Position numbers and translations under genes: made by a program. The notes beneath the pieces are model-generated. The model was not told where the DNA came from. It worked only from the letters and a program-made list of their open reading frames with translations, and did not search any database. Shown piece after piece: positions 18,976-37,637 of a stretch of DNA of 64,000 bases. The stretch lies in assembly GCA_965237415.1 (NCBI GenBank), contig CBDEFM010000002.1:1856001-1920000 (forward strand), written 5' to 3'. The DNA comes from Alphaproteobacteria bacterium. GTDB taxonomy: Bacteria; Pseudomonadota; Alphaproteobacteria; UBA828. The first letter of the stretch is position 1. Each line of letters starts with the position of its first letter.

Positions 18976-19650
18976 ATGGATTATCCCGTCCGCGGCCGCT
19001 ATGCGAACGCTGCGCTCTCGCCGCTGGAAGACGCGGCCATGGCGTGGTTGGACGGCTTCTATCAGCTGGAGCATCTCATCGCGACCCGGATGTGGGCGAT
19101 CAAGATCTGCCCCGAAGCCTCGCCGGAAGTACAATTTGCAGCGCTGGTGCATGACGCCGAGCGGTTCTTTCCCGGCGGCCCCTCCAGCACGCCGAGCAAC
19201 GGCTTCGACGATCCGGATTATCTCTTCGCGCATTCCACCCGGTCGGCGGATATCGTCGAGGAATGGTTGCGCAACCGCTCGCCGGCGCCGCCTGAGAGCT
19301 TCATCCGGCGCGTGCGCCGGCTCATCCTGCGGCACGAAATCGGCGGCGGATGGGAGGCCGATTTCGTGCAAGCCGCGGATTCGCTCTCCTTCCTGGAGAC
19401 CCTGGATTGGATCACCGTCGATTGGGTGCGGAGCGGCCCTTACACCGTCGCCCAGGCGCGGGAGAAGCTGGACTTCACCGTCGAGCGCATCCGGCCTTCC
19501 ATCGCCGTCGCCGCGGCGCTCCCGCTCTACGAGAGCGCCGTGCGCGCCCTGGACGCCGCCGAAGACTGCACGATGGACTTGAAACGACGGCGCGCGTTGG
19601 CGAGCAGCCGATCGTTCCTGTTCGGACTGCCTGTCTCGAAGGCGGGATGA
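18976..19650 (+). CDS. HD-domain-like protein (DUF4202-like)
   Basis: EHL...AALVHDAER...AHSTRSA...ILRHE...AADSLSFLE gives an H...HD...H...D pattern; GAGG RBS directly after the large subunit. Confidence 0.6.
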   Translation: MDYPVRGRYANAALSPLEDAAMAWLDGFYQLEHLIATRMWAIKICPEASPEVQFAALVHDAERFFPGGPSSTPSNGFDDPDYLFAHSTRSADIVEEWLRNRSPAPPESFIRRVRRLILRHEIGGGWEADFVQAADSLSFLETLDWITVDWVRSGPYTVAQAREKLDFTVERIRPSIAVAAALPLYESAVRALDAAEDCTMDLKRRRALASSRSFLFGLPVSKAG

Positions 19651-19812
19651 AGGCGACCGGCCGGCTCATGCGCCAAGCCTAAGCGAACGCAGCTTCCCCC
19701 AAGTTCGCTCCCGCGCCGGCGCGGATCGTCCATCCTGAATTGCGTCAGGGGATCACACCCCTCGGTCTCGCCGCACGCCGTCAATGGAGGGGCACTGCGG
19801 CCCAAATTCATA

Positions 19813-19872
19813 TTGACAGGCAGTGCGACACCAGCGCATCGTTATCGAGATATCGAAATTGTTTTCGATATC
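19813..19872 (+). promoter_or_regulatory. Putative sigma70 promoter (TTGACA at 19813) followed by a perfect inverted repeat GATATCGAAA-N4-TTTCGATATC (19849-19872)
   Basis: Read directly. The -10 element is weak (CATCGT at 19837). It lies 70 bp upstream of the hydantoinase operon. Confidence 0.65.
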
Positions 19873-19941
19873 CGTAAGTTCGGGCTGCCGCGATAGACCA
19901 TCGACGGGAAGCCTAAAGGCCCGGCATCCGGAGGCAGCGCC

Positions 19942-21957
19942 ATGCCGAATGGATGGCAAGTCGGTATCGATGTCGGCGGTACGTTTACCGACGTGATCGC
20001 CGTGCACCGGGCGCGCGGCGAGGTGAGAGCCGCGAAGGTTCCCTCCCGCACCGACGATCGCATCGCCGGACTGGTGTCAGCGCTCGGCGCGGTCGATCTC
20101 GCTTGGTCGGACGTGGACGATCTGATCCACGGCACGACCATCGTCACCAACGCCATCATCCAAGGCGACCACGCCAACGTCGCGCTGATCGCAACCCGAG
20201 GGTTCTCGGACACGCTCGCAATCGGGCGCCAGAACCGGCGCCACCTCTACCGGCTCGACCTGCCGCCCAAGCTCACGCCCCAGGTCCCCGCCGAGCGCCG
20301 CTTCGAGGTGACCGAGAGGCTCGACCACGACGGCCGGGTCCTGGTCGCGCTGGACCCGGCGTCGGTCGAAGACGCGATCGGGCGCGTCGCGGCGAGTGGT
20401 GCGGAGGCGGTTGCCGTGTCGCTTCTCCATTCTTACGCCAACCCTGCCCACGAGGAGGCGTTGGGCGAGCGCCTGCGCGCAAGGGTCCCCTACGTCGCGC
20501 TCTCGCACCGGGTCAATCCCGAGGCCCGGGAGTACGAGCGTACGGCGACGACGGCACTCAGCGCCGGAGTCATGCCGCTGGCGGCGGCGTATATGGATGA
20601 TCTGGACAGGGCAAAGCCGGAGGAATCCCGGCTGCACCTCTTCCATTCTGCCGGCGGCATGGCATCGCCCGCGGCCTTGCGCGATCTGCCGCTCGGCCTC
20701 GCCGCCTCGGGCCCTGCCGCCGGCGTCGCTGCGGCGGGCCGCATGGCGCGTGCGCTCGGGATCGAGCGTGCCATCAGCTTCGACATGGGCGGCACCACCA
20801 CCGATGTCTGCCTGATCCTCGACGGCGAGGCGCAGATCGCGAGCGACCGCTCCCTCGGCGGACGGCCTTTGCGCCAACCCATGGTCGCCGTGGAGTCCAT
20901 CGGCGCGGGCGGCGGGTCCATCGCCCGGTTGGATCACGGCTCCCTGCTCGTGGGGCCCGAGAGCGCCGGCGCCGAACCCGGACCCGCCTGCTACGCCAAG
21001 GGCGGCGACCGGCCCACCGTGACCGACGCCAATCTGGTGCTCGGATATATGGACGTGGAGCGCGTCCTCGGCGGAAACGTACGCCTCGATGCGGCTCTCG
21101 CCCACGATGTCATCGCACCGCTGTCTGAGGCGATGCACATGACGCGGGAGGCTGCGGCGCTGGGGGTCGTCAAGGTCGCCAACGCGGCCATGCTGCGGGC
21201 GCTGCGTCGGGTCACCGTGGAGCGCGGCGTCGACGGGCGCACCTGCACCCTCCTCGCCTTCGGCGGCGCAGGCCCCATGCACGCGGTGGCGTTGGCCCGC
21301 GCCTTCTCCATCGACAAGGTGGTCGTCCCTGCCCACTCCAGCATGTTCTCCGCCCTCGGCTGCGTCGGCGCTGAGATGAGCTACGCGCAGCAGCGCACGC
21401 TGCGGGTCGCCTCGGACGCGTGGGACGGCGAACGCGTGGACCGGGCACGGCGGGAGCTCCGCTCGACCCTCGCTGCCCCCATACAGGCGGCCGGCCATGA
21501 CGACGACCATCTAACGGTCGAGGAGGTGGCGTCGATCCGCTACCGGGGCCAGAGCTACGCCATCGAGATCGCGGGCGCCGCCTTCGACGATCCGGTGCGC
21601 CTGGGCCGCGCCTTCATGGACCGCCATCGGACGCTCTATGGCTTCGCCACGGAGGAGCCGTGGGAGCTGGAGTCGATCCGGGTGCGAGTCTCGGCGCCCC
21701 GCAACGGCGAGGCCCATCTGCCTGCCGCCAAGACCAACGAAGCCCCCTCACTCACCAAGATGTTCCGGTGCACGTTCGGCGCCGGCGAAGCCACGATGAC
21801 GCCGCGCTACGACCGCGCGGGCTTGGGTGCCGATTGCCCGCTGGAGGGGCCGGTCATCGTCGATGACGCATGGTCGACCGTCGTCGTGCCGCCCGGCGCG
21901 ACGCTGACCGCCGACGCCGCCGGTCATCTTCACATCGCCACCGGGATCGAGCCATGA
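19942..21957 (+). CDS. Hydantoinase/oxoprolinase family subunit A (ATP-dependent cyclic amide hydrolase)
   Basis: GIDVGGTFTD, HGTT, REYERTATT, SGPAAG, DMGGTTTD, IGAGGGS, SAGAEPGPACY, FGGAG. Confidence 0.93.
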   Translation: MPNGWQVGIDVGGTFTDVIAVHRARGEVRAAKVPSRTDDRIAGLVSALGAVDLAWSDVDDLIHGTTIVTNAIIQGDHANVALIATRGFSDTLAIGRQNRRHLYRLDLPPKLTPQVPAERRFEVTERLDHDGRVLVALDPASVEDAIGRVAASGAEAVAVSLLHSYANPAHEEALGERLRARVPYVALSHRVNPEAREYERTATTALSAGVMPLAAAYMDDLDRAKPEESRLHLFHSAGGMASPAALRDLPLGLAASGPAAGVAAAGRMARALGIERAISFDMGGTTTDVCLILDGEAQIASDRSLGGRPLRQPMVAVESIGAGGGSIARLDHGSLLVGPESAGAEPGPACYAKGGDRPTVTDANLVLGYMDVERVLGGNVRLDAALAHDVIAPLSEAMHMTREAAALGVVKVANAAMLRALRRVTVERGVDGRTCTLLAFGGAGPMHAVALARAFSIDKVVVPAHSSMFSALGCVGAEMSYAQQRTLRVASDAWDGERVDRARRELRSTLAAPIQAAGHDDDHLTVEEVASIRYRGQSYAIEIAGAAFDDPVRLGRAFMDRHRTLYGFATEEPWELESIRVRVSAPRNGEAHLPAAKTNEAPSLTKMFRCTFGAGEATMTPRYDRAGLGADCPLEGPVIVDDAWSTVVVPPGATLTADAAGHLHIATGIEP

Positions 21958-23549
21958 ATGGCGCTATCGATCCGGTGACCCTGGAGGTGATCCGCCACGC
22001 CCTGACGGCGACGGCGGAGGAAATGTCGCTCGTGGTCATGCGCTCGGCGCGCTCGCCGCTGCTGCGCGAGGCGGGCGATCTCTCGTCCGCGCTCACCGAT
22101 GCAGACGGCCACCTCATCGCCCAGGGCCGCGACATCCCGATGCACATGGGGGTCATGAGCTTCACCGTCCGCGAGTTCCTGAAGCGGGTGCCCAAGGCAC
22201 AGCTGGAGCCCGGCGACGTATGGTTCCTCAATCTGCCGGAAGTCGGCGGCAACCACTTGCCCGACGTGAAGGCGATCCGGCCGATCTACGCGGAGGGTGA
22301 GATCGTCGCCTTCGCGGAAAGTCTCGCCCATTGGGCGGATATCGGCGGCGCCGTGCCCGGCAGCTATGTCGCCGGCGCCACGGACGCGTGGCAGGAGGGG
22401 CTCCGCATTCCGCCCTTCCGGCTCTTCACCGCAGCGGGCCCCGACCGCGAAAAGCTCGACATGATCTGCGCCAACGTGCGGGGCGCAGACGAGCGCGAGG
22501 GCGACATTCTGGCGCAGCTCGCAGCCAGCCGGGCCGCGGAGGAGCGCGTGCACCACATCGTCGCCGAGCATGGCAGGGAGACGGTGTTGGACGCCATCGC
22601 CGCGATCCACGACCGGGCCGAGGCGCAGATGCGGGCGGCGCTCGCGGCGATTCCCGACGGCACCTATAGGGGCGAGGACTGGCTCGACGACGATGCCGGC
22701 GGAGGCGGGCCGGTTGCCGTTCGCGTTCTGGTGACGATCGAAGGCGACCGGGCGCGCTTCGATTTTTCCGAGACCGACGACGCGGCGCGAGGGCCCTTGA
22801 ACACCACGCCCTTCATCGCCGCGGCGTCCGTCTTCTATGTGGTCAAGACCCTGTTCGGGCCCGACATCCAGCCGAGCGGCGGCTGCTACCGCCCGCTTGA
22901 GATCGTGACCCGTCCCGGCTCCCTGCTCGATCCGTCCCCCGAAAGCCCCGTGGTGGGCGGCAATCACGAAACCTCGCAACGGATCGCCGACGCCGTGTTC
23001 AAGGCCCTCGAAGCCACCGGGCCGGAGCGCATTTCCGCCGGCGGGCCGACTACGTCGGGGCTGGTGCTCTTCGGCGGACGACGGGCCGACGGCGCCTGGA
23101 CCACCCTCTACGAGGTCCATGGCGGCGGCGAGGGCGCGCGGCACGACCGCGACGGTGCGCCGGTGGTGCGCGTTCACATGTCCAACGTGATGAACACCCC
23201 GGCCGAGGTGGTGGAAGCCGAATACCCCATCCGTATCGAATGCCAGCGCCTGCGCCAGGGCTCGGGCGGCGCGGGCCGGCGGCAAGGTGGCGAAGGCCTG
23301 CACCGCGAGTATCGCGTGCTCACCGACGACATGTCGGTCACCTCCATGTTCGAGCGCCGTGTGGTGCCGCCCTACGGCCTGCAAGGCGGCGACGACGGTG
23401 CGCCCTTCCGGGTCACCATCGACCACGCGGACGGCCGCCGCTCGGTGATGCCGGGCAAGGCGAACCTCCGGCTCGGCACCGACGACGTGGTCATCGTCGA
23501 GAGCTGCGGCGGCGGCGGTTACGGCGAGCCGGAACCGACAGGCCAGTGA
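21954..23549 (+). CDS. Hydantoinase/oxoprolinase family subunit B
   Basis: IDPVTLEV, RSARSPLLRE, GGNHLPD, HWADIGGAVPGS, QEGLRIPP, NTPAEVVEAEYP, GGGGYG; ATGA overlap. Confidence 0.93.
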   Translation: MNGAIDPVTLEVIRHALTATAEEMSLVVMRSARSPLLREAGDLSSALTDADGHLIAQGRDIPMHMGVMSFTVREFLKRVPKAQLEPGDVWFLNLPEVGGNHLPDVKAIRPIYAEGEIVAFAESLAHWADIGGAVPGSYVAGATDAWQEGLRIPPFRLFTAAGPDREKLDMICANVRGADEREGDILAQLAASRAAEERVHHIVAEHGRETVLDAIAAIHDRAEAQMRAALAAIPDGTYRGEDWLDDDAGGGGPVAVRVLVTIEGDRARFDFSETDDAARGPLNTTPFIAAASVFYVVKTLFGPDIQPSGGCYRPLEIVTRPGSLLDPSPESPVVGGNHETSQRIADAVFKALEATGPERISAGGPTTSGLVLFGGRRADGAWTTLYEVHGGGEGARHDRDGAPVVRVHMSNVMNTPAEVVEAEYPIRIECQRLRQGSGGAGRRQGGEGLHREYRVLTDDMSVTSMFERRVVPPYGLQGGDDGAPFRVTIDHADGRRSVMPGKANLRLGTDDVVIVESCGGGGYGEPEPTGQ

Positions 23550-23582
23550 ACGGATGAACGACGCAAGCAAGGGAACGATGCA

Positions 23583-24365
23583 GTGAAAGTGGATGGCAAG
23601 AAGGCGATCGTCACCGGCGCCGCGAAGGGCATGGGCGCGGCCATCACCACGACGCTGGCACGCGAGGGCGCCGACGTCGTGCTCACGGCCCGCGAGACCG
23701 ACGCGCTCGATCGGGTTGCCGGGGATGTCCGCGCGCTCGGGCGCGAGGCCCACGTCGTAGCCTGCGATGTCACCGACGATGCGCAAGTGAAGGCAATGGT
23801 CGATCGGGCGCTCGCGGCCTTCGACGGGCGCATCGACATTCTGGTCAATATCGCCGGCGTCACCGGCCCCATCGAGACGCCGGTGCAGGATATTGACGTG
23901 GCCGACTTCGACTACGTCATCACGGCCAACGAAATCGGTACCTTCCTGCCCATCAAGTATGTGGTGCCGACCATGATCGCGCAGAGGAGCGGCAAGATCG
24001 TCAATATCGGCGGCACGTCGGGCCTGCGCGGCTACGCCATGCGGACCGCCTACAGCGCGTCCAAATGGGCGGTGCGCGGGATTACCCGCACGGTCGCGCT
24101 CGAGGTCGGCAAGTACAACGTCAACGTCAACGCTGTCTGCCCCGGCATCGTCGAGACGCCGCGCATGCAGAAGCTCTGCGAGGAGAAAGCCAGAGTGCGC
24201 GGCTGGACGATCGACCAAGTGTACGACGAATACGTTCAGGAGATGTGCCTGAAGCGTGTGACCACGCCGGACGACGTGGCCAACGCCGTGTTGTTCATGG
24301 CGAGCGAGGACAGCCGCCAGATCACCGGCCAGGCCATCACGGTCGACGGCGGCTGGGACGTGTGA
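23583..24365 (+). CDS. Short-chain dehydrogenase/reductase (SDR)
   Basis: VTGAAKGMG, YSASK catalytic YxxxK, NAVCPG, ITGQAITVDGG. Confidence 0.93.
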   Translation: MKVDGKKAIVTGAAKGMGAAITTTLAREGADVVLTARETDALDRVAGDVRALGREAHVVACDVTDDAQVKAMVDRALAAFDGRIDILVNIAGVTGPIETPVQDIDVADFDYVITANEIGTFLPIKYVVPTMIAQRSGKIVNIGGTSGLRGYAMRTAYSASKWAVRGITRTVALEVGKYNVNVNAVCPGIVETPRMQKLCEEKARVRGWTIDQVYDEYVQEMCLKRVTTPDDVANAVLFMASEDSRQITGQAITVDGGWDV

Positions 24366-24399
24366 GGCGGCAGCGCAGGCGATAACGGGAGGCGTCACG

Positions 24400-25287
24400 A
24401 TGTACACGCCGTTCGAGTTGGACATTCCGAACGACCTGGCCGGCGCTCTGGCGGCCCTCGCCAACGGTGCCGGCGAGACCGTTCTGCCCCTTGCCGGGGG
24501 CACGAACCTCATCGTCGACATTCGCGCCAAGCGCGAGCGGCCCGACCGGATGGTGGGCCTCGGCGAGGTCGACGAGTTGCTTGGCATGGACTTCGGAGCA
24601 GAGCGCATAACCATCGGCGGTCGCACCACGGTGAGCGACCTCCTGCGCTCGCCCGAGATCGCCCGGGCGGCGCCGTCGCTGATCGAGTCCGCCCGACTCT
24701 TCGGCGGCCTGATGGTGCGCAACACCGGGACTGTCGCCGGGAACATCGCGAGCGGCTCGCCCGCGGCGGATCTGGTGCCGCCGCTTCTCGCTCTCGATGC
24801 CGAGCTGACGCTGGTGAGTGCGTCGTCCACGCGCACGTTGGCGTTGGATGACTATTACCTCGGCTACAAACAGGATGCGCGGCGGCGGGACGAGCTGATC
24901 ACCCGGATTTCCTGGCCGCACCTGCCCGAGAATTCCGTCAACACCTTCTACAAGCTGGCCCGCCGCAAGGGCGATGCGATTACCGTCACCGGCGTGGCAG
25001 TGACGCTGGCGGCCGCGGGCGGCCGCTGCACCAAGGCGCGGATCGCACTTGGGGCCGTCGCGCCCATCGTCTTCCGCGCCAAGGAGGCCGAGGCGCTGCT
25101 GGAGGGCGAGGCGCTGACGCCGACGCTGATCGACGAAGCAGCGGCAGTGGCGGTATCCGCGTGCAGCCCCATCGACGATATCCGGGCTTCGGCCGACTAC
25201 CGCCGCCATACGGCCCAGGCCCTGACACGGCGACTGGTTGCCCAAGCGTGGGATCGGCTCGCCCAGGGGAGTAACGCGCATGCCTGA
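24400..25287 (+). CDS. Mo-hydroxylase FAD-binding subunit
   Basis: LAGGTNL, VRNTGTVAGN, GSPAAD, PIDDIRASADYR. Confidence 0.92.
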   Translation: MYTPFELDIPNDLAGALAALANGAGETVLPLAGGTNLIVDIRAKRERPDRMVGLGEVDELLGMDFGAERITIGGRTTVSDLLRSPEIARAAPSLIESARLFGGLMVRNTGTVAGNIASGSPAADLVPPLLALDAELTLVSASSTRTLALDDYYLGYKQDARRRDELITRISWPHLPENSVNTFYKLARRKGDAITVTGVAVTLAAAGGRCTKARIALGAVAPIVFRAKEAEALLEGEALTPTLIDEAAAVAVSACSPIDDIRASADYRRHTAQALTRRLVAQAWDRLAQGSNAHA

Positions 25288-25768
25288 CGAACGGACCATC
25301 ACACTCCGCATCAACGGCCGCGAGGAGGAAGGGCGCTTCCCCGCGCATCGCACGCTGTTGGAAGCGCTGCGGCAGCTCGGGCACATGGAAGTGAAGTGCG
25401 GTTGCGAGAAGGGCGATTGCGGCGCCTGCGCCGTGCTGCTTGACGGCATGGCCGTGGACAGCTGCCTGACCGTGGCCTGGATGGCGGCCGGCAAGGAGGT
25501 CACGACCATCTCCGGCCTCGGCGACCTCGATTCGCCCCATCCCTTGCAGCAGGCGTTTGCCGAAACCGGTGCCGCGCAGTGCGGCTACTGCATTCCAGGC
25601 ATCATCATCGCGGCGAAGGCGATCATCGACGAGAACCCGGAGCCCCGCGAAGACGACATCCGCTTAGGTCTCAGCGGCAATCTCTGCCGCTGCACCGGCT
25701 ACACCAAGATCTTCGAGGCCATCGCCGACGCGGCCGCCGCGATGCGCGCCGAGGGAGGTGAGCAATGA
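25280..25768 (+). CDS. Mo-hydroxylase 2Fe-2S subunit
   Basis: GCEKGDCGAC, QCGYCIPG, GNLCRCTGY. Confidence 0.94.
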   Translation: MPDERTITLRINGREEEGRFPAHRTLLEALRQLGHMEVKCGCEKGDCGACAVLLDGMAVDSCLTVAWMAAGKEVTTISGLGDLDSPHPLQQAFAETGAAQCGYCIPGIIIAAKAIIDENPEPREDDIRLGLSGNLCRCTGYTKIFEAIADAAAAMRAEGGEQ

Positions 25769-28089
25769 CCCACACCGACATCGACGCAGGCGCGCTGGCC
25801 AACGTCCAATACCGGCAGATCGGCAAGCCGCTCACCCGCACCGACGCGCCAGGCAAGGTTACGGGCCGCACGCCCTATGCCGGCGATTACGTGATGCCCA
25901 ACATGCTGCACATGCGGGTGCTCCGCGCCGACATCGCGAGCGCCCGTCTCGTGCGTCTCGATGTCTCGAAGGCGCGGGCGCTCAAGGGCGTCGCCAGCGT
26001 GCTCACCGCCACCGATCTCGCCGACCGCACGGCGGCCACCGACATCCCCGGCCAGACCGGCCAGAAGAGGCTGGATACGGATCAGCCGGTTCTGGTGAAG
26101 GAGCGGGTCCGCTATTTCGGCGAGCCACTGGCGTTGATTGCTGCTGAAACCCGCGATCTCGCCGACCGGGCGGCGGACTTGATCGAGTTCGAGCTTGAGC
26201 CGATCCCTGGCGTCTACGACCCGCTGGAAGCGCTGCAGCCCGGCGCGCCGCTCGTCTACGGCAGCGACAACATCGTCGCCGAGCGCAAGATCAAGAAGGG
26301 CGATGTCGAGGCGGGCTTCGCCAAGGCCGACCTCATCGTCGAGAACACCTACAAGACACCCTTCCAGGAGCACGCCTTCCTGGAGCCGGAGGTCGGCCTC
26401 GCCTGGGTGGATGAGAACGACGTGGTCAACATCCGCGTCTCGACCCAGGTCATCGAGCACTTCCGGCCGATCGCCGATGCCATCGGCGTGCCGCACAACA
26501 AGGTCCGCGTGCGCGGCGCGCTGGTCGGCGGCGGCTTCGGCGGCAAGGAGGACATGACCGTTGAGGTCTATCTGGCGTTGCTTGCCAAGCACACCGGGCG
26601 GCCGGTGCGGCTGGAATACTCCCGCGAGGATTCCTTCGTGGGCCACGGCAAGCGTCACCCCTTTATCCTGACCTACCGCACGGGCGTCACGAAGGAGGGC
26701 AAGATCACGGCGCTCGACGTGCAGATGATCGCCGATGCCGGCGCCTACGTGTTCCTGAGCCCCTACGTCATCCTCTACGCGCTGGTCGCAGCACCCGGCC
26801 CCTACCGCGTCGACAACCTCAATGTCTTCGCCCGGGCCGTGGCGACCAACAACATGTACACCAGCGCCTTCCGAGGCTTCGGCGCGTTGCAGGCCTGCAC
26901 GGCCTACGAGCAGCAGATGGACGAGATCGCCGAGACGCTCGGCATCGATCGCCTGGAGCTCAGACGGCGGAATTTCCTGAAGACCGGCGAGCCCATGTCC
27001 ACGGGTTTCGTGCCGCCGAGCGCCATCTGGACCGAGCAGTGCGCGGAGAAGGCCTGGGCCGCGCTCGGCGAGCCCACGCCGGCGGAGGGGCCGATACGGA
27101 CAGGCCGCGGCCTTGCCTGCTATCAGCAGAGCTACGGGCGCCTCACCTTCCTGCACGACACCTCGGAGGCCTGGGTCGGCGTCGAGATGGACGGCACCGT
27201 TGTGGTGCGCTCCGGCGTCACCGACATCGGCGCCGGGCAAATTTCGGCGCTGGGCCAGATCGCGGTGGAGGTGCTGGGCGTCACCCTCGACAACGTGGTC
27301 ATCTACAGCAGCGATTCCGCGGTGACCCCGCTCGCCGGCACGACCACGGCGACACGCGCGCTCTACATGACCGGCAACGCCGCCAAGCAGGCGGCCGAGG
27401 GGCTTCGCGCCCGGCTCGCCGAACGCGCGGCGCAGGAATTCGGCGTCGCCCCCGACGAGATCGACATGGGCTTCAACGAGGTCTTCGTCATCGATAAGCC
27501 TGAAGCATCCATGCCCCTCGTCGACCTGGTGCGCATCTGCGCGGCCGAGGGCATCCACCGCTCCGAGCTCGCAATCTTCCGCGCGCCGTTCGGCGAATTT
27601 CTCGACCCCGAGACGGGCCAGGGTCAGGCCCATCCCGACTATGCCTACGGCGCGCATGCCGTCGAAGTCTCCGTCGATGTGGAGACCGGCGAGGTCGAGG
27701 TGCTGAAGAGCGTGGCCGCTCACGATGTCGGCCAGTGCATCAATCCGGCGGCGGTCGAGGGCCAGATCCAGGGCGGCGCGCAGAACGGCCAGGGCTACGC
27801 GCTCAGCGAAGAGATGCTCTACGAGGAGGGCCGCCTGGTGACGCCGTCGTTCAGCGAATACCTCATGCCGACCGCGATGGACATGCCGAAGGTCGAGTGC
27901 ATCATCCTCGAATCCCGCAGCGGCGTGGGCCCCTTCGGCGCAAAGGGCATCGGCGAGCCGGCCATGACCGCCGTCGCACCCGCCATCGCCAACGCCGTCG
28001 CCGATGCCATTGGCGTGCGCGTCTTCGAGATGCCGATCACGCCGGAGCGCGTGGTCCGGGCGTTGAAGCGGCGCGATGCCCCGCAATGA
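25765..28089 (+). CDS. Xanthine/nicotinate dehydrogenase-family molybdopterin-binding subunit
   Basis: HAFLEPE, VGGGFGGKED, SAFRGFG, EGQIQGG, GPFGAKGIGEP. Confidence 0.94.
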   Translation: MTHTDIDAGALANVQYRQIGKPLTRTDAPGKVTGRTPYAGDYVMPNMLHMRVLRADIASARLVRLDVSKARALKGVASVLTATDLADRTAATDIPGQTGQKRLDTDQPVLVKERVRYFGEPLALIAAETRDLADRAADLIEFELEPIPGVYDPLEALQPGAPLVYGSDNIVAERKIKKGDVEAGFAKADLIVENTYKTPFQEHAFLEPEVGLAWVDENDVVNIRVSTQVIEHFRPIADAIGVPHNKVRVRGALVGGGFGGKEDMTVEVYLALLAKHTGRPVRLEYSREDSFVGHGKRHPFILTYRTGVTKEGKITALDVQMIADAGAYVFLSPYVILYALVAAPGPYRVDNLNVFARAVATNNMYTSAFRGFGALQACTAYEQQMDEIAETLGIDRLELRRRNFLKTGEPMSTGFVPPSAIWTEQCAEKAWAALGEPTPAEGPIRTGRGLACYQQSYGRLTFLHDTSEAWVGVEMDGTVVVRSGVTDIGAGQISALGQIAVEVLGVTLDNVVIYSSDSAVTPLAGTTTATRALYMTGNAAKQAAEGLRARLAERAAQEFGVAPDEIDMGFNEVFVIDKPEASMPLVDLVRICAAEGIHRSELAIFRAPFGEFLDPETGQGQAHPDYAYGAHAVEVSVDVETGEVEVLKSVAAHDVGQCINPAAVEGQIQGGAQNGQGYALSEEMLYEEGRLVTPSFSEYLMPTAMDMPKVECIILESRSGVGPFGAKGIGEPAMTAVAPAIANAVADAIGVRVFEMPITPERVVRALKRRDAPQ

Positions 28090-28109
28090 GAGACGGGGCG
28101 CCCTGAGCG

Positions 28110-28871
28110 ATGGCCGATAGCAACGACAAGCCGCTCGGGCGATACATCCGGGTGCTTGAGACGGTGGCCGCCGCGCGAACCGGGCTCACGCTCACGGACA
28201 TCGCCAAGGAGCTCGAACTGCAACCGGGAACGGCACATCGCCTGATCCGCGGCCTCCTGGACCTCGACCTGTTGCGCAGCGCGCCTGGCACCAAGAGCTA
28301 CGTGACCGGGCCTCGCCTGCAAACCCTCCTCCACGCGACCATGGACGGCGCCGGCTATGCGGGGCTGGCGAAGTCGGTGCTGGACGGGCTCGTTGCGGAG
28401 TTCGGCGAGACCGCGCATCTGGCCCGGCTGAACGGCGACTTCGCCGAGTCCGTGCTGATGGAGCAGCCCGTGGGCTCCGACCGCGCCTTCGTGCAGCCGG
28501 GCCGGCAACTGCCGTTGCACGCGGCGGCCTCCGGCAAGGCGATCCTGGCGTTCCAGGACGAGGAGTTCGTCGCGCGCTACCTCTCGCGCCCGCGCACGCG
28601 CTACACGGAGAAGACCAGGGTCGGGGAAGCGGAGATCCGCACTGAGCTCGGTCAAATCCGCGCGGACGGCATGGCGGTATGCGACAACGAACTCGATGCC
28701 GGCGTGCTGAGCTACGGACATCCGATCCGGGTGAGCAGCGGCTATGTCGTCTATTCGGTCGGCATCACCGGCCTCGCGGACCGCTTCCGCCCCATGGAAC
28801 GAACCCGGATCAAGCAGAAGTTATCCGAGGCGGCGGCCGACCTCGGCAGGAGGCTCGGATTTACGAGCTGA
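28110..28871 (+). CDS. IclR family transcriptional regulator
   Basis: N-terminal HTH (LTLTDIAKELELQPGTAHRL), GETAHL, LPLHAAASGKAILAF. Confidence 0.92.
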   Translation: MADSNDKPLGRYIRVLETVAAARTGLTLTDIAKELELQPGTAHRLIRGLLDLDLLRSAPGTKSYVTGPRLQTLLHATMDGAGYAGLAKSVLDGLVAEFGETAHLARLNGDFAESVLMEQPVGSDRAFVQPGRQLPLHAAASGKAILAFQDEEFVARYLSRPRTRYTEKTRVGEAEIRTELGQIRADGMAVCDNELDAGVLSYGHPIRVSSGYVVYSVGITGLADRFRPMERTRIKQKLSEAAADLGRRLGFTS

Positions 28872-28883
28872 TGGGAGTTCGCG

Positions 28884-29822
28884 ATGGTTGACGCACGCTT
28901 GGCAGAGATTATTCGGAATTGCCGGAACGGTACGGGAAGCAACTGCGGCGGATATCTGGAACCCACCGCCACGGGCCAACCGGGGGCCTACATCTCGACG
29001 ATCTTGCTATCGACGGGCAGTGTGAACCTTGAACAATTTCCAGGTTACCCATTCGACGAGGACTTAGACCAGGGCATGGCCAAAATCGTGTCCTACGATC
29101 GCGCCGAATGTAACGATTCCTATATCGGTCAAATCAATATGTTGCAGGCGTCGTCGTTCAGCGGCGTTAACGGAGCGATATGGGGCTACGACCTGGCAAT
29201 CGAACCCCGCATCGGGAAGACGTATCCTGTCGGCCGTATCGAGAATATACCCATCTACTCCCTCATTCCCTTACGCGATGCAACCCGGCAGCTCTTTGGA
29301 GTCGCCGAAAACCGGCATTTCCCTCCGCAAGAAGGCGCCATGGTCGTTTGCGCCGAGAAGTACCTCACAAGCGCGGTCTCCGACGGAAATTTGTGGATTT
29401 GGTGCGCTCTCGGGTTCGCGATTGCGGAAGACCGCGATAATCATGCTTGCTTGTTTATGGAAGACACGGGGTCGTTGAGGCTCGGGGAAGACGAAGAACA
29501 GACCGTGCGGCACAAGCTCGACGATAGGCTCAACAGGATCGCCTATGCGGCGTATCTATGCGGCGAGAATCAGGGCGCACGCTACAAGAAGATCTACATC
29601 GGCTGGAAGGCGTCCTACATACCGAAGAATCACGTGGGTTGTGCGCTCGCCTGCGCCCCATACGTGACGCTTCCGTCCGGCGCATTCAAGAACATTACTC
29701 CGGAGACCGACATCCTCGAGCTTTCGACCGAGGACTGGCTATCCAGAGTGGGCTTTTCCGAGGTGGACGAGCCCGACTATGCGCTCAAGACCCTGACCGG
29801 GCCGAATATCCCTCTCCAATAA
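28884..29822 (+). CDS. hdcA: Pyruvoyl-dependent histidine decarboxylase proenzyme
   Basis: IVSYDRAE..SYIGQINMLQASSFSG (Ser-Ser autocleavage site), GYDL, VCAEK, LFMEDTG, CAPYVTLP. These match the Lactobacillus 30a HdcA motifs as I recall them (SYDRAE, QINMTTASSF, MFVEDAG, VAPYVSLP); 312 aa. Confidence 0.9.
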   Translation: MVDARLAEIIRNCRNGTGSNCGGYLEPTATGQPGAYISTILLSTGSVNLEQFPGYPFDEDLDQGMAKIVSYDRAECNDSYIGQINMLQASSFSGVNGAIWGYDLAIEPRIGKTYPVGRIENIPIYSLIPLRDATRQLFGVAENRHFPPQEGAMVVCAEKYLTSAVSDGNLWIWCALGFAIAEDRDNHACLFMEDTGSLRLGEDEEQTVRHKLDDRLNRIAYAAYLCGENQGARYKKIYIGWKASYIPKNHVGCALACAPYVTLPSGAFKNITPETDILELSTEDWLSRVGFSEVDEPDYALKTLTGPNIPLQ

Positions 29823-29918
29823 ACGCGGATTCACGGGCCTAGGGAGAGACATCGTGATCGACGAATTGGGACGCCGGCCGGCGTCCGGCCGGTCTCCTCG
29901 CTGACCGGGAGAGGCACG

Positions 29919-31007
29919 TTGGTCGAGGACAGCATAGCGATCGAGGTACGCGATGCCGTCAAACGCTTCGGCTCGGTGACCGCACTCGCCGGGGCGAGTC
30001 TGACGATCCGGGACAACGAGTTTTTCACGCTGCTCGGGCCTTCGGGCTGCGGCAAGACCACCCTGCTTCGCCTGATCGCAGGCTTTGAGGACATCACCGA
30101 GGGGACGATCCTCCTCTACGGCGAGGAACTCGGCGACCTCCCTCCCAACAAGCGGCCGATCAACACCGTCTTCCAGCACTACGCGCTTTTTCCGCACATG
30201 ACGGTGGCGGAGAACGTGGCCTTCGGCATGCGGAGGCTCGGCTGGAGCAAGGCCGATATCGAGGACCAGACCGCCCGCATCCTCGACCTCGTGAAGCTCG
30301 GCGACCTCGCAGCCCGCAGACCGTCTCAGCTCTCCGGCGGGCAACAGCAGCGGGTGGCACTGGCGCGGGCGATGGCACCTCGGCCCCGGGTGCTGTTGCT
30401 CGACGAGCCGCTGTCCGCGCTCGATCTCAAGCTCCGGCAGGCGATGCGCATCGAGCTGAAGCAGATTCAGAAGGATACCGGCATCACCTTCGTCTTCGTC
30501 ACCCACGACCAGGAAGAAGCACTGACGATGTCGGACCGCATCGCCGTCATGTCGGCGGGCGAGATCCGGCAGATCGGGACGCCGCACGAAATCTATGAGG
30601 CGCCCGTCGACCGCTTCGTGGCCAACTTCATCGGCGAGACCAACGTCCTCGACGTGACCGTGCTGCGGGGGCCGGACGGCGCCTACACGTGCCGCCTGAG
30701 CAACGGCGCGGTGTTTCCGTGCCAAGCCGCCGGCACTCCGTCGGAGGACGGGGCCACCGCGCATGTGCTGATCCGGCCCGAGCGTCTGTCTTTTGTGGCC
30801 GCGGAACAGGGTGATCGCGGCCTCACGGGCGTGGTCGACCAGATCGTCTATCTCGGCACCGACATCCAGTACGGCGTCCGGCTCGACGGAGGGCCCGACG
30901 TCCTGGTCCGGACGCAAAATGCCGGCGAGGACGTGAGGCCTTACCAGTCCGGCGACCGGGTGGGCCTCACCATCGCCCCCGGCGCCGCCCGGCTGCTGGT
31001 GGACTGA
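29919..31007 (+). CDS. Polyamine-type ABC transporter ATP-binding protein (PotA-like)
   Basis: GPSGCGKTT, VFQHYALFPH, LSGGQQQRVALARA, VTHDQEEALTMSDRI, C-terminal TOBE domain; TTG start. Confidence 0.93.
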   Translation: MVEDSIAIEVRDAVKRFGSVTALAGASLTIRDNEFFTLLGPSGCGKTTLLRLIAGFEDITEGTILLYGEELGDLPPNKRPINTVFQHYALFPHMTVAENVAFGMRRLGWSKADIEDQTARILDLVKLGDLAARRPSQLSGGQQQRVALARAMAPRPRVLLLDEPLSALDLKLRQAMRIELKQIQKDTGITFVFVTHDQEEALTMSDRIAVMSAGEIRQIGTPHEIYEAPVDRFVANFIGETNVLDVTVLRGPDGAYTCRLSNGAVFPCQAAGTPSEDGATAHVLIRPERLSFVAAEQGDRGLTGVVDQIVYLGTDIQYGVRLDGGPDVLVRTQNAGEDVRPYQSGDRVGLTIAPGAARLLVD

Positions 31008-31933
31008 TGACGGCCGAGCTCAGCAGCACCAGGGCAGTCTCCCGCACCTTCGCGCCGGTGCGCACCGGATTGCTGATCCCCACCTGGGTGGTGATCGGTT
31101 TCTTCCTCCTGGCCCCGGTGCTGATGATGCTCGTCTACTCCTTTCTGACGAAGGAGTTCCGCGGCGGGGTGATCTGGGAGTTCTCGCTCGCGGCTTACGA
31201 CCAATTCATCTTCGACCGCGGCCTCTTCGGCGACGATCCGCCCAAGATCGAGTGGACGTACATCGTCATCTTCGCACGCTCGATAATTCAGGCCGCCGTT
31301 GCCACCGTCCTCTGCCTCATCATCGGCTTCCCGACCGCATACTTCATCGCCACCCGGTCGCCCGAGACGCGCTCGATCTGGCTCTTCCTGGTCACGGTGC
31401 CCTATTGGGTGAACCTGCTCATCCGCACCGTTTCGATGAAGTTCCTCATCCGCGACAACGGGCCGCTCAACAAAGCCTTGATGGGTCTCGGACTCATCAA
31501 CGAGCCGATCGCGCTCATCAACACCGATTTCGCCGTGCAGCTCGGTCTCTTCTACTCGTACCTGCCCTTCATGGTGCTGCCCATCTATGCATCGGTGGAG
31601 CGTTACGACTTCGCGCTTTCCGAAGCGGCGGCCGACCTCTACGCCGGGCGCTGGACGATCCTCCGCCGGGTGATTCTGCCGATCGTGCGGCCTGGCATCG
31701 TGGCCGGTTGCATACTGGTCTTCGTGCCGAGCCTCGGCGCGTTCCTTGCGCCCGATCTTCTCGGCGGCGCCAAGTCATTCCTGATCGGCTCCCTGATCGA
31801 AGAGCAGTTCAAGGGCAACGCCGGCAATTGGCCGTTCGGCGCGGCCGCGTCGATGATTCTCCTCACTCTCGTGCTGATCGTGCTCTTGATCTATGCGCGC
31901 CGGCAAGCGCGGCGCAGCGCGAAGCAGGGCTGA
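31007..31933 (+). CDS. Polyamine-type ABC transporter permease (PotB-like)
   Basis: [38 protein letters not shown]. Confidence 0.92.
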
Positions 31934-31934
31934 G

Positions 31935-32768
31935 ATGCGGCGCAGCCTCAATATCAGGCGCTACCCCGGCTTCCTGCCGATGACGATCCTCTGTCTGGTG
32001 GTGCTCTACGCCCCCCTCCTGGTGGTGATGGTTTACAGCTTCAACGATTCGCTCTCCATCACCCGCTGGGGTGGGTTCAGCTTCCGCTGGTACATGGACG
32101 TCTTCACCGGGCCGGAATCGGCGAAATTCAAGGACGCCGCGTGGAACTCGCTGACCATCGCGCTCTCCGCCGCCGTCACCAGCACGACCATCGCCACCGC
32201 CGCCGCCATCGCCATGGTGCGCGGCGGCGCCTTTCGCGGCAAATCGTTGAATTTCGCGTTGATCAGCATGCCGATCATGGTGCCCGAAATCGTCACCGCC
32301 GTGGCGACTCTGGTCTTCTTCAGCGCCATCGGATTCGCGCTCGGGTACCTGTCAATTCTCGTGGCCCATATCGTCTTCTGTATTCCGTTCGCCTACCTGC
32401 CCATCGCGGCTCGGCTGCAGGGTATCGACGGCAGTTACGAGGAAGCCGCTCAGGATCTATACGCCAGCCGGTTCCAGGCATTTCTTCGTGTTCTCATGCC
32501 CTTGATGGCACCCGGAATCCTCGCTGGTTTTCTGTTGGCATTCATCATCTCTCTCGACGATTTCATCATCACGAACTTCATCAAGGGCGCTGGCATCGAA
32601 ACCCTGCCCACGGCGATCTTCGGGGCCGTGAAGCAGGGGATCAAGCCCAACATCATGGCTCTCAGCACACTCATGCTCTCCGTCTCGATACTCATCGTCA
32701 CACTTTCCTATCTCATCGGTCGTTACGGTCGTTATGGAACGAAGACGGAGGCATCGGAATCTGGTTAA
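31935..32768 (+). CDS. Polyamine-type ABC transporter permease (PotC-like)
   Basis: [39 protein letters not shown]. Confidence 0.92.
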
Positions 32769-32791
32769 CTGGCTCAACAAAGGAGGTCAAC

Positions 32792-33829
32792 ATGCGATAC
32801 ATGTTCAAAGCTGGAATGGTGGCAGTAGCACTGATCTTTGCCGCGAGTGCGGCCCACGCTCAGGAGAAGATCTCGATTTACCACTGGTTCGAGTACATTC
32901 CGCAGGAGCTGCTCGACAAGTTCGCTGCCGAAACGGGGATCGAGGTCACGATGGACACCTTCGATTCCAACGAGGCCATGCTCGCCACGCTCAAGGCCGG
33001 CAAGCTCGGCTCCTACGACGTGGCGGTGCCGGGCGATTATATGGTCGAGATCATGACGGGCGAAGGCATGCTCGACACCATCGCAGAGGGCGAGCTCGCC
33101 AACTTCGCCAACATCGAGCCGCAATGGGTGGACGTGCCCTTCGATCCGGGCCGCATGCACTCGATCCCCTATCAGTGGGGCTCGACCAGCTTCTCGGTGA
33201 ACCGGGACGTCTATGCGGGCGACATCAACGACACCAGCATCATCTTCGACCCGCCGGAGGAGGTGAAGGGCAAGATCAACGTCCTGGACTCCCAGGGCGA
33301 GGTCATGCTCTTGGCCTCCCTCCATCTCGGCATTCCGCAATGCTCGACGGACCGCGAGCAGCTGAAGGCGCTCGACGCGCTCTTGCAGTCCGCCAAGCCG
33401 CACTGGGCCTCCTTCGGCTCCGACATCGCCAAGGACGTGCTCGTCTCGGGCGATGCCGCGGTGGGGATGATTTGGAACGGGTTCTCCGCCAAGGCGCGCG
33501 CGGAGGGCGCCAACATCGAGTACGCCTATCCGCGTCAGGGCTTCGTCGTCTGGATGGACAATGTCGTGCTCCTGAAGGACGCGCCCAACCGGGCGAGCGC
33601 GCTCAAGTTCATGGACTTCCTGCTGGAGCCGGAGAATATCGCCGCGGTGACCAACTACGCGCGCTATGCGGCAGGCGTTGAGGGTGTCACGCCGCTTCTG
33701 GATCCGGAGCTCGCCTCGGCGCCCGAATCCGTTCCGCCCGCCGATGCCCCTGCGGGCAGCTTCATCGCGGTCTGCGATCAGGCGACGCAGGAGGTCTACG
33801 ACACGATGTGGACCCGCCTGAAGAAGTAG
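32792..33829 (+). CDS. Polyamine-type ABC transporter substrate-binding protein (PotD/PotF-like)
   Basis: Signal peptide, YHWFEYIP, FDSNEAMLA, DPGRMHSIPYQWG, WNG, WMDN; AAGGAGG RBS. Confidence 0.92.
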   Translation: MRYMFKAGMVAVALIFAASAAHAQEKISIYHWFEYIPQELLDKFAAETGIEVTMDTFDSNEAMLATLKAGKLGSYDVAVPGDYMVEIMTGEGMLDTIAEGELANFANIEPQWVDVPFDPGRMHSIPYQWGSTSFSVNRDVYAGDINDTSIIFDPPEEVKGKINVLDSQGEVMLLASLHLGIPQCSTDREQLKALDALLQSAKPHWASFGSDIAKDVLVSGDAAVGMIWNGFSAKARAEGANIEYAYPRQGFVVWMDNVVLLKDAPNRASALKFMDFLLEPENIAAVTNYARYAAGVEGVTPLLDPELASAPESVPPADAPAGSFIAVCDQATQEVYDTMWTRLKK

Positions 33830-33912
33830 ACGTCCGTTTCCTGTTGCCGGGCGGCGCACCCCAACGGGGCGCGCCGCCCGGCTCAACCTGCCGCGACCAG
33901 TCGGGTGATCCC

Positions 33913-35988
33913 ATGAGCCTGGAGTCTCGTTACGACATCCTGCTTCAACCCATCGAGATCGGGCCGGTCACCGCCCGAAATCGCTTCTACCAGGTGCCCC
34001 ACTGCACCGGCATGGGCTATCGCGACCCGACCGCGCTCGCCCATATGCGGGGCGTGAAGGCCGAGGGTGGCTGGGCGGTCGTCTGTACCGAACAGGTCGA
34101 GATCCACTGGACCTCGGAGATCACGCCCTTCATCGAGCTCCGGCTCTGGGACGACCGCGACATCCCGATGCTCGCCAGGATGGCGGACCACATCCACGCG
34201 CACGGCGCGCTCGCCGGGCTGGAGCTCTGCTACAACGGCCTGCACGGCCCCAACTTCTATTCGCGCGAAGTGCCGATGGCGCCGACCGGGCGCGCGATCG
34301 CGAGCTTCACTTACGAACCCCTCCAGGCGCGCACCATGGACAAGGAGGACATCCGCAACGTCCGCCGCTGGCACAAGGCGGCGGCGCTTCGCGCCCGGCG
34401 GGCGGGTTTCGACCTGATCTATGTGTATGCCGGCCACGGGCTGAGCTTCCTGCATCACTTCCTCTCCAGGGAGTTCAATCACCGCACCGACGAATACGGC
34501 GGCTCGCTCGAAAACCGCGTGCGGCTCCTCAAGGAGCTCCTGATCGACACCAAGGAAGCGGTGGGCGACAGCTGCGCCGTTCCCTGCCGCCTCTCGATGG
34601 ACGAGCTTCGCGGCGCGGACGGGCTGGAGAAGGCCGAGACCGAGGACATGATCGGTCTCGTCGCGGAGATTCCGGACCTCTGGGACGTTTGCCTCGCCGG
34701 CTGGGAGAACGACAGCCTCTCGTCCCGCTTCGGCGAGGAGGGAGGGCAGGAACCCTTCATCGCCGGCGTCAAGAAGCTCACCACGAAGCCGGTGGTCGGC
34801 GTCGGCCGCTATACGTCGCCGGACCGCATGGTCTCCATCGTCAAGAAGGGCATCGTCGATCTGATCGGCTGTGCCCGGCCCTCCATCGCCGATCCCTTCC
34901 TGCCGCGAAAGGTGGCCGAGGGGCGCCTCGAGGACATCCGCGAGTGTATCGGCTGCAACATCTGCGTATCGGGCGATTTCACCATGTCGCCCATCCGCTG
35001 CACCCAGAACCCGACCATGGGGGAGGAATGGCGCCGGGGCTGGCATCCCGAGTTCATTCGGCCGAAGGAGAGCGAGAAGCCCGTCCTGATCGTGGGCGCC
35101 GGCCCCGCCGGCCTCGAAGCCGCGCAGGCGCTCGGCAAGCGCGGCTACGACGTAACCCTGGCCGAGCAGGGCAGAGAGTTGGGCGGGCGGGTCGCCCGCG
35201 AATGTCGCCTGCCGGGCCTCGCCGCCTGGGGCCGGGTGCGAGATTACCGCGCCGAGCAGCTTCGGAAGCTTCCCAACGTCGCCCTCTATCTGGAATCCCA
35301 ACTCGATGCGGAGACCGTTCTCGAATTCGGCTGCCCCCGCGTCGTGATCGCCACAGGCGCGCGCTGGCGCAGCGACGGGGTCGGCCACCACTGGACCGCG
35401 CCCCTGCCCATCGAGGACGGATCGCAGGTCCTCACGCCCGACGACCTCATGGAGGGTCGCTTGCCCGAGGGAACGCGCGTCGTCGTCTGGGACGACGATC
35501 ACTACTACATGGGCGGCGTGCTGGCCGAGCTCTTGGCCGACAAAGGCTATGAGACCACCTACATGACGCCCGCATCGGAGGCCTGCACCTGGAGCCGCAA
35601 CACCATGGAGCAGCACTTCGTCCAGGCGCGCATGCTGGAGAAGGGAATAGCCATCGAGGCGTTCCGGACCCTGAGCCGTATTTCTCCGGGCACCGTCGCC
35701 ATGTCATGCGTCCATACCGGCCGGGTCGAAGAGCTGGAGGCCGATGCGGTGGTTCTCGTCACCAGCCGAACATCCTCGGACGAGATCGCGGCCGATCTCT
35801 TGCGGCAACAGGACCGCTGGCCGGACTCCGGCCTCGAAGCCGTCGAGGCCATCGGCGACGCGCTTGCGCCGGCCACCATCGCCCATGCTGTCTACGCCGG
35901 GCGACGCTACGCCGAAGACCTCGACGGCGTCGCCGTTGCGATGGACGAGGTGCCCTTCAAGCGCGAGATCGCAGAGTTGATCGAGTGA
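33913..35988 (+). CDS. Histamine dehydrogenase-like iron-sulfur flavoprotein (trimethylamine dehydrogenase family)
   Basis: RFYQVPHCTGMG (Cys for covalent FMN), KAEGGW, IYVYAGH, RTDEYGGSLENR, ARPSIADP, ECIGCNICVSGDFTMSPIRCTQNP (4Fe-4S), GEEWRRGWHPE, GAGPAG; 691 aa. Confidence 0.85.
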   Translation: MSLESRYDILLQPIEIGPVTARNRFYQVPHCTGMGYRDPTALAHMRGVKAEGGWAVVCTEQVEIHWTSEITPFIELRLWDDRDIPMLARMADHIHAHGALAGLELCYNGLHGPNFYSREVPMAPTGRAIASFTYEPLQARTMDKEDIRNVRRWHKAAALRARRAGFDLIYVYAGHGLSFLHHFLSREFNHRTDEYGGSLENRVRLLKELLIDTKEAVGDSCAVPCRLSMDELRGADGLEKAETEDMIGLVAEIPDLWDVCLAGWENDSLSSRFGEEGGQEPFIAGVKKLTTKPVVGVGRYTSPDRMVSIVKKGIVDLIGCARPSIADPFLPRKVAEGRLEDIRECIGCNICVSGDFTMSPIRCTQNPTMGEEWRRGWHPEFIRPKESEKPVLIVGAGPAGLEAAQALGKRGYDVTLAEQGRELGGRVARECRLPGLAAWGRVRDYRAEQLRKLPNVALYLESQLDAETVLEFGCPRVVIATGARWRSDGVGHHWTAPLPIEDGSQVLTPDDLMEGRLPEGTRVVVWDDDHYYMGGVLAELLADKGYETTYMTPASEACTWSRNTMEQHFVQARMLEKGIAIEAFRTLSRISPGTVAMSCVHTGRVEELEADAVVLVTSRTSSDEIAADLLRQQDRWPDSGLEAVEAIGDALAPATIAHAVYAGRRYAEDLDGVAVAMDEVPFKREIAELIE

Positions 35989-37620: not shown

Positions 37621-37637
37621 GCGTGGCTCATGGAGGC

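Follow-up and report, generated by a model that had tools for sequence, protein, structure and literature searches.

A putative pyruvoyl-type histidine decarboxylase gene within a candidate histamine catabolic cluster of an uncultured alphaproteobacterial genus

A stretch of 64,000 nucleotides from an alphaproteobacterium of the lineage UBA828 (assembly GCA_965237415.1, contig CBDEFM010000002.1, positions 1,856,001 to 1,920,000), referred to as the window, carries six consecutive genes at positions 28884 to 35988, in which a putative pyruvoyl-type histidine decarboxylase, HdcA, is followed by a PotABCD-like importer and a dehydrogenase of the histamine dehydrogenase (HADH) type. The question raised by this locus is why a gene for making histamine should stand with genes that would take histamine up and destroy it. 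For histidine breakdown in bacteria, the Hut pathway is the route that is taught, and pyruvoyl histidine decarboxylases are viewed as histamine-exporting devices for acid resistance or energy. Jointly, the evidence favours a Hut-independent catabolic reading of the locus, and we consider it moderately probable that histidine is decarboxylated first and that the histamine then enters a pre-existing catabolic module. The substrates of decarboxylase, importer and dehydrogenase, the co-regulation of their genes and the fate of imidazole acetaldehyde are what we infer from sequence and gene context.

Composition of the six-gene run

All six genes were confirmed on the + strand of the window, which is chromosomal (contig 2 of a genome of 4.75 Mb, 96% complete) and has a G+C content of about 0.68. 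The run opens with hdcA (28884..29822), encoding a cytoplasmic homologue of pyruvoyl-type histidine decarboxylases of 312 amino acids with the PF02329 domain. It is followed by genes for a PotA-like ATPase (29919..31007; ABC_tran and TOBE_2 domains, TIGR01187), two permeases with BPD_transp_1 domains, one PotB-like (31007..31933) and one PotC-like (31893..32768, of which the real start may lie slightly downstream), and a PotD-like periplasmic binding protein (32792..33829; SBP_bac_8), the proposed histamine binder. The last gene (33913..35988; Oxidored_FMN and Pyr_redox_2) encodes a flavin mononucleotide (FMN)/4Fe-4S amine dehydrogenase of 691 amino acids, placed in the histamine dehydrogenase clade. 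potA overlaps potB, potB overlaps potC, and gaps of 96, 23 and 83 bp separate hdcA from potA, potC from potD and potD from the dehydrogenase gene, in agreement with a preliminary description of this DNA as holding six co-directional genes less than 100 bp apart, the widest spacer being 96 bp. A terminator scan found no + strand terminator-like site between the six genes and no T-run terminator in the hdcA-potA spacer. The gene 3' of the dehydrogenase gene (36076-37926, - strand) is convergent.

HdcA matched PF02329 with 159.3 bits (cut-off 25) over 273 of the 294 profile positions and aligned with both chains of the Lactobacillus 30a enzyme (PDB 1hq6_B, E-value 2.2e-23; the other chain, 8e-4). 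Its residues S90-S91-F92 are aligned to the S81-S82-F83 cleavage site of these chains. Residues Y62, D63, E66, S81, K155, F195 and E197 of the Lactobacillus 30a enzyme, which we take to be its imidazole- and carboxylate-binding and proton-donor residues, are all identical in the alignment. Across 17 diverse homologues (40-91% identity), S90-S91-F92, Y71, D72, E75, K159, F191 and E193 are invariant. The motifs quoted in the preliminary description were located as QASSFSG (S90-S91), VSYDRAE, LFMED and CAPYV, and its assignment of hdcA to the pyruvoyl histidine decarboxylase family, with an intact cleavage site, stands. Its emphasis on Gram-positive bacteria needs to be changed: 336 proteins are homologous to HdcA at an E-value of at most 0.001, named Rhodobacterales proteins among them, 139 genomic relatives are spread over many phyla, and pyruvoyl hdcA has been reported in six phyla, according to the part of PMC8465708 on its distribution always by searches made jointly with the antiporter. 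The closest homologue outside the genus of the window shares 68% identity with HdcA, the next at most 57%. No match to AA_permease, the family of the histidine/histamine antiporter, was obtained among the open reading frames scanned across the whole window.

The dehydrogenase scored 912 bits with the HADH of Nocardioides simplex (3k30), 882 with that of Rhizobium (6de6), 727 with 6l6j and 546 with trimethylamine dehydrogenase (TMADH); on these scores it groups with the histamine dehydrogenases rather than with TMADH, as had been proposed from the motifs VPHC and CIGCNICVSGD...SPIRCTQNP, both of which were located. The match to the N. simplex (3K30) and Rhizobium sp. 4-9 (6DE6) enzymes is full-length with the same cofactor residues and triad: the FMN-linking C35, the Fe-S cysteines (CIGCNIC...C) and the equivalents of Y176, H179 and D270 are retained. 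Eight histamine-binding residues proposed for the N. simplex enzyme (PMC10180351) served as the comparison list, of which Q65, I74, F77, E79, W267 and D358 (N. simplex numbering) are present. The source genome contains seven matches of the TMADH family at an E-value of at most 1e-100 and some related genomes at least 19; as the family is so strongly expanded in these bacteria, paralogy is a real concern. Two of the paralogues, on contig 1 of the source genome (12787-14835 and 258466-260514), have equal scores (753.3 bits, 51% identity to the dehydrogenase of the window), pointing to duplication of a large segment or to a repeat in the assembly. Other genera of this family and order also have HADH-like genes (55-60% identity), which lack any Pot, HdcA or xanthine dehydrogenase (XDH) context and were set aside as paralogues.

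As to the importer, PotA exceeded the cut-off of the TIGR01187 polyamine ATPase subfamily (381.2 against 355.6 bits). The best NCBIfam matches of the two permeases were PotB (237 bits) and PotC (218 bits), both under the cut-off, and that of the binding protein was PotD (NF007048, 214 bits, cut-off 582). The binding protein, of which the signal peptide ends AHA/QE, shares about 40% identity with PotD of E. coli (208 bits). Compared with the E. coli spermidine pocket, in which we presume the roles of the residues, including the acidic D168, three of 12 residues are changed (T35F, S83G and D168S), while the aromatic box and E171/D257 are retained. The window encodes the same four components as the spermidine-preferential PotABCD importer of E. 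coli, from which it differs in the pocket, in the PotD equivalog score and in having a HADH and not a polyamine gene as partner.

Distribution of the importer, the dehydrogenase and hdcA

PotD orthologues of 67-72% identity turned up in six other families when 400 genomes of the class were searched. In five of the six, potABCD is no more than about 4 kb from a HADH gene; the cluster of the sixth has a class-III aminotransferase gene where the HADH gene would be. The Rhizobium-type active-site signature is exact in all five linked dehydrogenases, and the single one that was scored gave 1222 bits with 6de6. T35F, S83G and the loss of D168 are common to the PotD of the window and all six orthologues. 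These clusters also encode an aldehyde dehydrogenase, flavin mono-oxygenase-family proteins (FMO-like or HpaB-type), LysR regulators, hydrolases of the M20, CN-hydrolase, amidase or deacetylase families and an aspartase-family protein (Lyase_1), which is the gene set that would be expected for catabolism of histamine to aspartate by analogy with Pseudomonas, as that pathway is outlined in PMC8231116. The linkage of importer and dehydrogenase in these families, together with the common pocket changes, is the strongest evidence that the two probably form a histamine module, and gene context in these families lends the histamine reading good support. None of five genomes with such clusters contains PF02329. 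In the loci L107-L112, M20 peptidase, acetylpolyamine-amidohydrolase-like and CN-hydrolase genes join those for PotABCD and the Rhizobium-type HADH; that these clusters also process conjugates such as N-acetylhistamine or beta-alanyl-histamine is speculation.

Within the genus of the window, PF02329 was found in 16 of 21 genomes, and in none of 40 other relatives. There are 17 distinct loci in the genus (the window, L001-L015 and L088). hdcA lies immediately 5' of potA in 15 of them and after the HADH gene in L014, and L004 ends at a contig edge; it is within the cluster in all 16 loci that could be assessed. The pairing of hdcA with the transporter, for which the preliminary description had a single genome, is thus found throughout these loci. 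One genome of the genus, G003 (locus L082), has the same cluster without hdcA, the upstream regulator gene iclR being followed directly by potA. Three others (G013, G015 and G016) are without hdcA, a PotD orthologue and an orthologue of the molybdenum (Mo) subunit encoded further upstream in the window.

The base composition of hdcA sets it apart from its surroundings. In the window its G+C content is 0.56 and its third-position G+C content (GC3) 0.70, against 0.67 and 0.87 for the neighbouring genes; in 12 loci its GC3 is 0.69-0.81 against 0.74-0.95 (0.85-0.95 excluding potC), and about 0.9 in the remaining loci. Like its neighbours, hdcA is under purifying selection, with a median ratio of nonsynonymous to synonymous substitution rates (dN/dS) of 0.093 over 152 pairs against 0.066-0.18 for those genes. 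The HdcA tree largely mirrors that of the neighbouring genes, L014 branching first, and the pattern fits one old acquisition of hdcA followed by one relocation and one loss. The spacer between hdcA and potA (29823..29918, + strand) contains, just 3' of the hdcA stop, a weak copy of the ribosome-site and start region of potA (direct repeat D2; 29842-29864 against 29907-29929, 74% over 23 nt), and after it a GC-rich palindrome (29869-29897; inverted repeats I8/I9). The spacer differs in length between species, and the sequence after hdcA resembles the 3' end of iclR. The weak copy and the palindrome could represent an operator or the scar of an insertion, and the repeated stretches on either side of hdcA could likewise be such scars; all were indistinguishable from chance, and the reading as scars was set aside.

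A second association of this kind was present among the 79 HdcA loci sampled. L016 belongs to an unrelated alphaproteobacterial metagenome-assembled genome (MAG) with a G+C content of 46.6% and encodes a 42% identical HdcA homologue with an intact TSSF site. There, hdcA abuts genes for DUF1028, RidA, M20, aldehyde dehydrogenase and class-III aminotransferase proteins, followed by potABCD. This gene content repeats that of the histamine cluster of L107, with the aminotransferase substituting for HADH, and hutU was not found in the genome of L016. A second lineage has independently combined an HdcA homologue with a catabolic cluster of the histamine type, and on at least two occasions the pyruvoyl HdcA family appears to have been taken up as the entry to histamine-oxidising catabolism in lineages where hutU was not found. 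Elsewhere other partners occur: HdcA loci of Bacteroides have the classical amino-acid permease, and in loci of Rhodobacterales, Roseibium and an alphaproteobacterial MAG (L021, L027, L044 and L050; about 8.3-10.8 kb per locus) a TGL-domain gene (protein-glutamine gamma-glutamyltransferase, PF20085) is found immediately 5' of the HdcA-family gene.

Weighing the catabolic reading

The core of the locus would be a module for the uptake and oxidation of histamine, in which a PotABCD-type importer, its binding protein adapted to a mono-amine rather than a polyamine, is combined with a cytoplasmic histamine dehydrogenase that converts histamine to imidazole acetaldehyde and ammonia. In one uncultured genus, a foreign gene for a pyruvoyl histidine decarboxylase would have been inserted into this module and retained by selection. 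HdcA would decarboxylate intracellular histidine, and the same dehydrogenase would oxidise both the histamine so formed and that imported. The cell would gain a decarboxylation-first use of histidine, at minimum of its amino nitrogen, in a mostly Hut-less lineage. Such a Hut-independent route had been put forward in the preliminary description. It is favoured by the clade of the dehydrogenase, the link between importer and HADH, the retention of hdcA in the cluster, the failure to find hutU in the source genome and the locus L016; the enzyme activities and the ligand of the binding protein are predictions from sequence.

Several findings weigh against this reading, beginning with the enzymes. 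HdcA is about 35-40% identical to characterised enzymes and missed the TIGR00541 equivalog threshold, with 157 bits against 346.65, on account of which its sequence is called that of a divergent member of the family. In the dehydrogenase, two of the proposed histamine contacts are altered, N115H and Y181L in N. simplex numbering, and no replacement of F176, the equivalent of Y181 in the Rhizobium enzyme, was tolerated when that enzyme was screened by mutagenesis (reported in part of PMC10180351); the preferred substrate could therefore differ. All orthologues at the locus within the genus carry the same signature, except that L082 has Thr where N115 would align.

The dehydrogenase gene is also less constant at the locus than hdcA. 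When two of the 17 genus loci that end at a contig edge are left out, it lies 3' of potD in eight of 15 (the window, L001, L002, L011-L014 and L088) and is absent from the other seven (L005-L010 and L015). In L005 four transposase or integrase genes (IS1595, phage integrase, IS91 and DDE; 15458-20667) are in its place, in L010 an unrelated thiamine pyrophosphate enzyme gene. The proposed co-occurrence of the three parts holds for hdcA and the transporter and fails for HADH as a constant neighbour. The seven genomes without HADH at the locus, and three further genomes of the genus, have a HADH-type gene of 73-74% identity elsewhere, beside putA, with 880 and 879 bits to the two characterised HADHs. 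No genome of the genus was found to contain both types. In favour of the catabolic reading, each of the 16 HdcA-positive genomes of the genus has one or the other, at 73% identity or more, and the two genomes with neither type, G015 and G016, are also without HdcA. In the hdcA-less L082 the HADH gene (15537-17594) has a GC3 of 0.76 against 0.87-0.93 for its neighbours, which hints at its replacement through transfer in G003.

Among the points on the same side is the limited independence of the observations. The loci of the genus are kin and therefore amount to roughly a single evolutionary event, to which a relocation and a loss are added. No HADH gene lies within 10 kb of any of 64 distant HdcA loci (37-46% identity), and L016 is the only one of these with an alternative catabolic set. 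In the genome of the window, hutU gave no match and hutH reached no more than 78.7 bits (cut-off 539), whereas hutU is present in three of the 20 other genomes of the genus (G003, G006 and G007) and in four of 36 in the family, and two HdcA-positive genomes do carry it. Because hutU is rare across the family regardless of HdcA, the missing Hut pathway belongs to the lineage as a whole and does not closely complement HdcA; the suggested absence of hut genes is borne out for the source genome as regards hutU, and its tie to HdcA is lost. In the source genome, none of the aldehyde dehydrogenase, DUF1028, RidA, M20, acetylpolyamine amidohydrolase and CN-hydrolase proteins of the other clusters has a close orthologue (best match 39%), and no genes for later steps by way of imidazole acetate were identified, which leaves the path beyond imidazole acetaldehyde unexplained.

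On expression, contigs of 95-99% identity from four metatranscriptome libraries of one study lie on the cluster. One (28708-29041) spans the iclR/hdcA junction, several run from hdcA through the spacer to 29946-29947, one extends from 29833 into potA, and others cover potC-potD, parts of the HADH gene and parts of the upstream block. None of the RNA contigs has at least 31 letters in both hdcA and potA. The contigs speak for the catabolic reading, but as RNA libraries can hold DNA and a contig is not a transcript, they are weak evidence of expression. Several metagenome runs labelled as sponge held just 5-6% of sampled words, and no habitat is claimed.

Three other explanations compete with decarboxylation-first catabolism. 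HdcA may make histamine for proton consumption or as a host signal or inducer, with the importer and dehydrogenase recapturing it and capping its level. In the part of PMC8465708 on their function, classical pyruvoyl HdcA enzymes are linked to acid resistance and to energy through histidine/histamine exchange, histamine is a recognised bacterial signal (as set out in part of PMC8231116), and the regulator gene 12 bp 5' of hdcA would suit such a role. The cluster, however, holds no antiporter or exporter, the neighbours of hdcA being an importer and a degrading enzyme. The HdcA cluster of L016 is likewise made of catabolic enzymes and the Pot-HADH clusters of other families hold full catabolic gene sets, so that we regard homeostasis or signalling as unlikely. 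HdcA might also act on a substrate other than histidine, the module degrading that product. To our knowledge, no activity other than histidine decarboxylation has been found in PF02329, and the presumed imidazole- and carboxylate-binding residues are all identical. With this evidence in view we consider such a substrate very improbable, even given the score under the equivalog cut-off and the fact that the HdcA proteins of the genus form a distinct clade, set apart by QASSF and CAEK motifs and 40-50% identical to the nearest other groups.

The remaining alternative, that the importer and the dehydrogenase serve a different amine (agmatine, putrescine or an N-acyl amine) and that hdcA landed beside them by chance, draws on a larger number of observations. 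The N. simplex HADH also oxidises agmatine and putrescine (as stated in part of PMC10180351), two proposed substrate contacts differ in the enzyme of the window, the paralogues are many, acetylpolyamine-amidohydrolase-like and CN-hydrolase genes lie beside orthologous Pot clusters, and HADH is dispensable at the locus in seven species. Yet orthologous importers stand beside dehydrogenases with the full Rhizobium signature, of which the tested one is so close to a histamine-specific enzyme; hdcA has stayed in the cluster despite its relocation in L014, under strong purifying selection; and L016 repeats the association. A chance landing in a module for another amine therefore seems quite unlikely, and the catabolism of histidine by way of histamine is the explanation that we retain.

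Flanking genes and relation to known systems

The preliminary description, correct as to the run of six genes, had missed what lies upstream: a gene for an IclR-family regulator (28110..28871, + strand; HTH_IclR and IclR_C), which ends 12 bp 5' of hdcA, and a co-directional block (19942..28089, + strand; Pfam assignments) encoding HyuA, HyuB, a short-chain dehydrogenase/reductase (SDR) and the FAD, FeS and Mo subunits of an XDH-family enzyme. The best characterised match of the Mo subunit is 4-hydroxybenzoyl-CoA reductase (361 bits), none being close, and HyuB is similar to N-methylhydantoinase and to a hydantoinase entry. Of the 400 genomes, six others carried an orthologue of the Mo subunit (63-76% identity). 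The five other-family genomes inspected (L102-L106) all have the same six-gene order without Pot or HADH genes, next to Liv-type transporters, a creatinase-like gene or a sarcosine-dehydrogenase-like gene, and three of the five have an IclR homologue (45-47%) with the block. Since the order is conserved alone in five other families, the block is regarded as a separate module and was rejected as an established part of the histamine module. A role of IclR as dedicated histamine regulator is doubtful, as its homologues travel with the Hyu-XDH block elsewhere; it may belong to the upstream block. A promoter scan gave one site against 2.2 expected, inside the Mo-subunit gene, and was uninformative.

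At every locus of the genus that extends far enough upstream, the block and the Pot cluster are contiguous, and in five genomes checked the two are jointly present or jointly absent. The whole run of 16 kb (19942-35988) could be conceived as one new type of pathway from histidine to aspartate, in which the XDH-family molybdenum enzyme, with the SDR, would oxidise imidazole acetaldehyde and hydroxylate the imidazole ring without O2, and an ATP-dependent hydantoinase-type HyuAB would open the ring, replacing the mono-oxygenase and amidohydrolase steps of the Hin pathway of Pseudomonas. Contiguity, joint presence and absence, and the missing orthologues of the Pot-HADH aldehyde dehydrogenase, DUF1028 and RidA proteins in the source genome speak for this extension; the solitary block with other neighbours in five other families speaks against it, and we rate it rather unlikely. 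The window also encodes a urease cluster (ureB, ureC, ureE, ureF, ureG and ureD) and two more molybdoenzyme loci of the XDH/CO-dehydrogenase family (coordinates 3053-8449, 15594-18965 and 40596-42956), and genes for catabolism of nitrogen compounds are plentiful in it (amidase, hydantoinase and polyamine-type transporters).

In comparison with the hdcA-hdcP(-hdcB-hisRS) clusters of lactic acid bacteria, clostridia and Bacteroides, as presented in part of PMC8465708, the decarboxylase of the window has the same PF02329 domain, Ser-Ser self-cleavage site, catalytic residues and cytoplasmic location. Unlike those clusters, the locus has no antiporter, HdcB or hisRS nearby, and the partners are an ATP-driven importer and a histamine-oxidising enzyme; histamine is therefore probably consumed and not exported. 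With the Hin system of Pseudomonas (HinA permease, HinC aminotransferase, HinD aldehyde dehydrogenase, HinFLHG and HinK; PMC8231116) the proposed module would share the uptake of histamine, its deamination to imidazole acetaldehyde and the passage onward to central metabolism, and the L016 cluster follows the same logic of aminotransferase and aldehyde dehydrogenase. It differs in using a PotABCD-type ATP-binding cassette (ABC) importer in place of the amino acid-polyamine-organocation (APC) permease and an FMN/Fe-S dehydrogenase in place of the aminotransferase. There are no HinD-, HinF-, HinL-, HinH- or HinG-like genes at the locus, and it has a built-in histidine decarboxylase, which is absent from Hin in the part of PMC8231116 that sets out the system.

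Pseudomonads catabolise arginine and lysine by decarboxylating them first, to agmatine and cadaverine respectively. As in those routes, the amine is oxidised or transaminated after decarboxylation; the variant of the window would concern histidine and use a pyruvoyl enzyme. The literature searched gave no description of decarboxylation-first use of histidine by bacteria and no pyruvoyl hdcA clustered with a histamine dehydrogenase or ABC importer, the supplementary cluster tables of PMC8465708 lying outside the search. The gene combination accordingly remains undescribed in that literature, as had been supposed, and the module is one built from known parts in a new combination.

If the catabolic reading is true, the locus would represent a second route for bacterial use of histidine, in which one horizontally acquired gene extends an amine pathway back to the amino acid. 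The importer would be the first candidate histamine importer of the ABC type, with a binding-protein signature, the histamine transporter reviewed in the part of PMC8231116 on uptake being an APC permease. These bacteria would then be net consumers of histamine that are also able to make it, which would be relevant wherever histamine acts as a signal.

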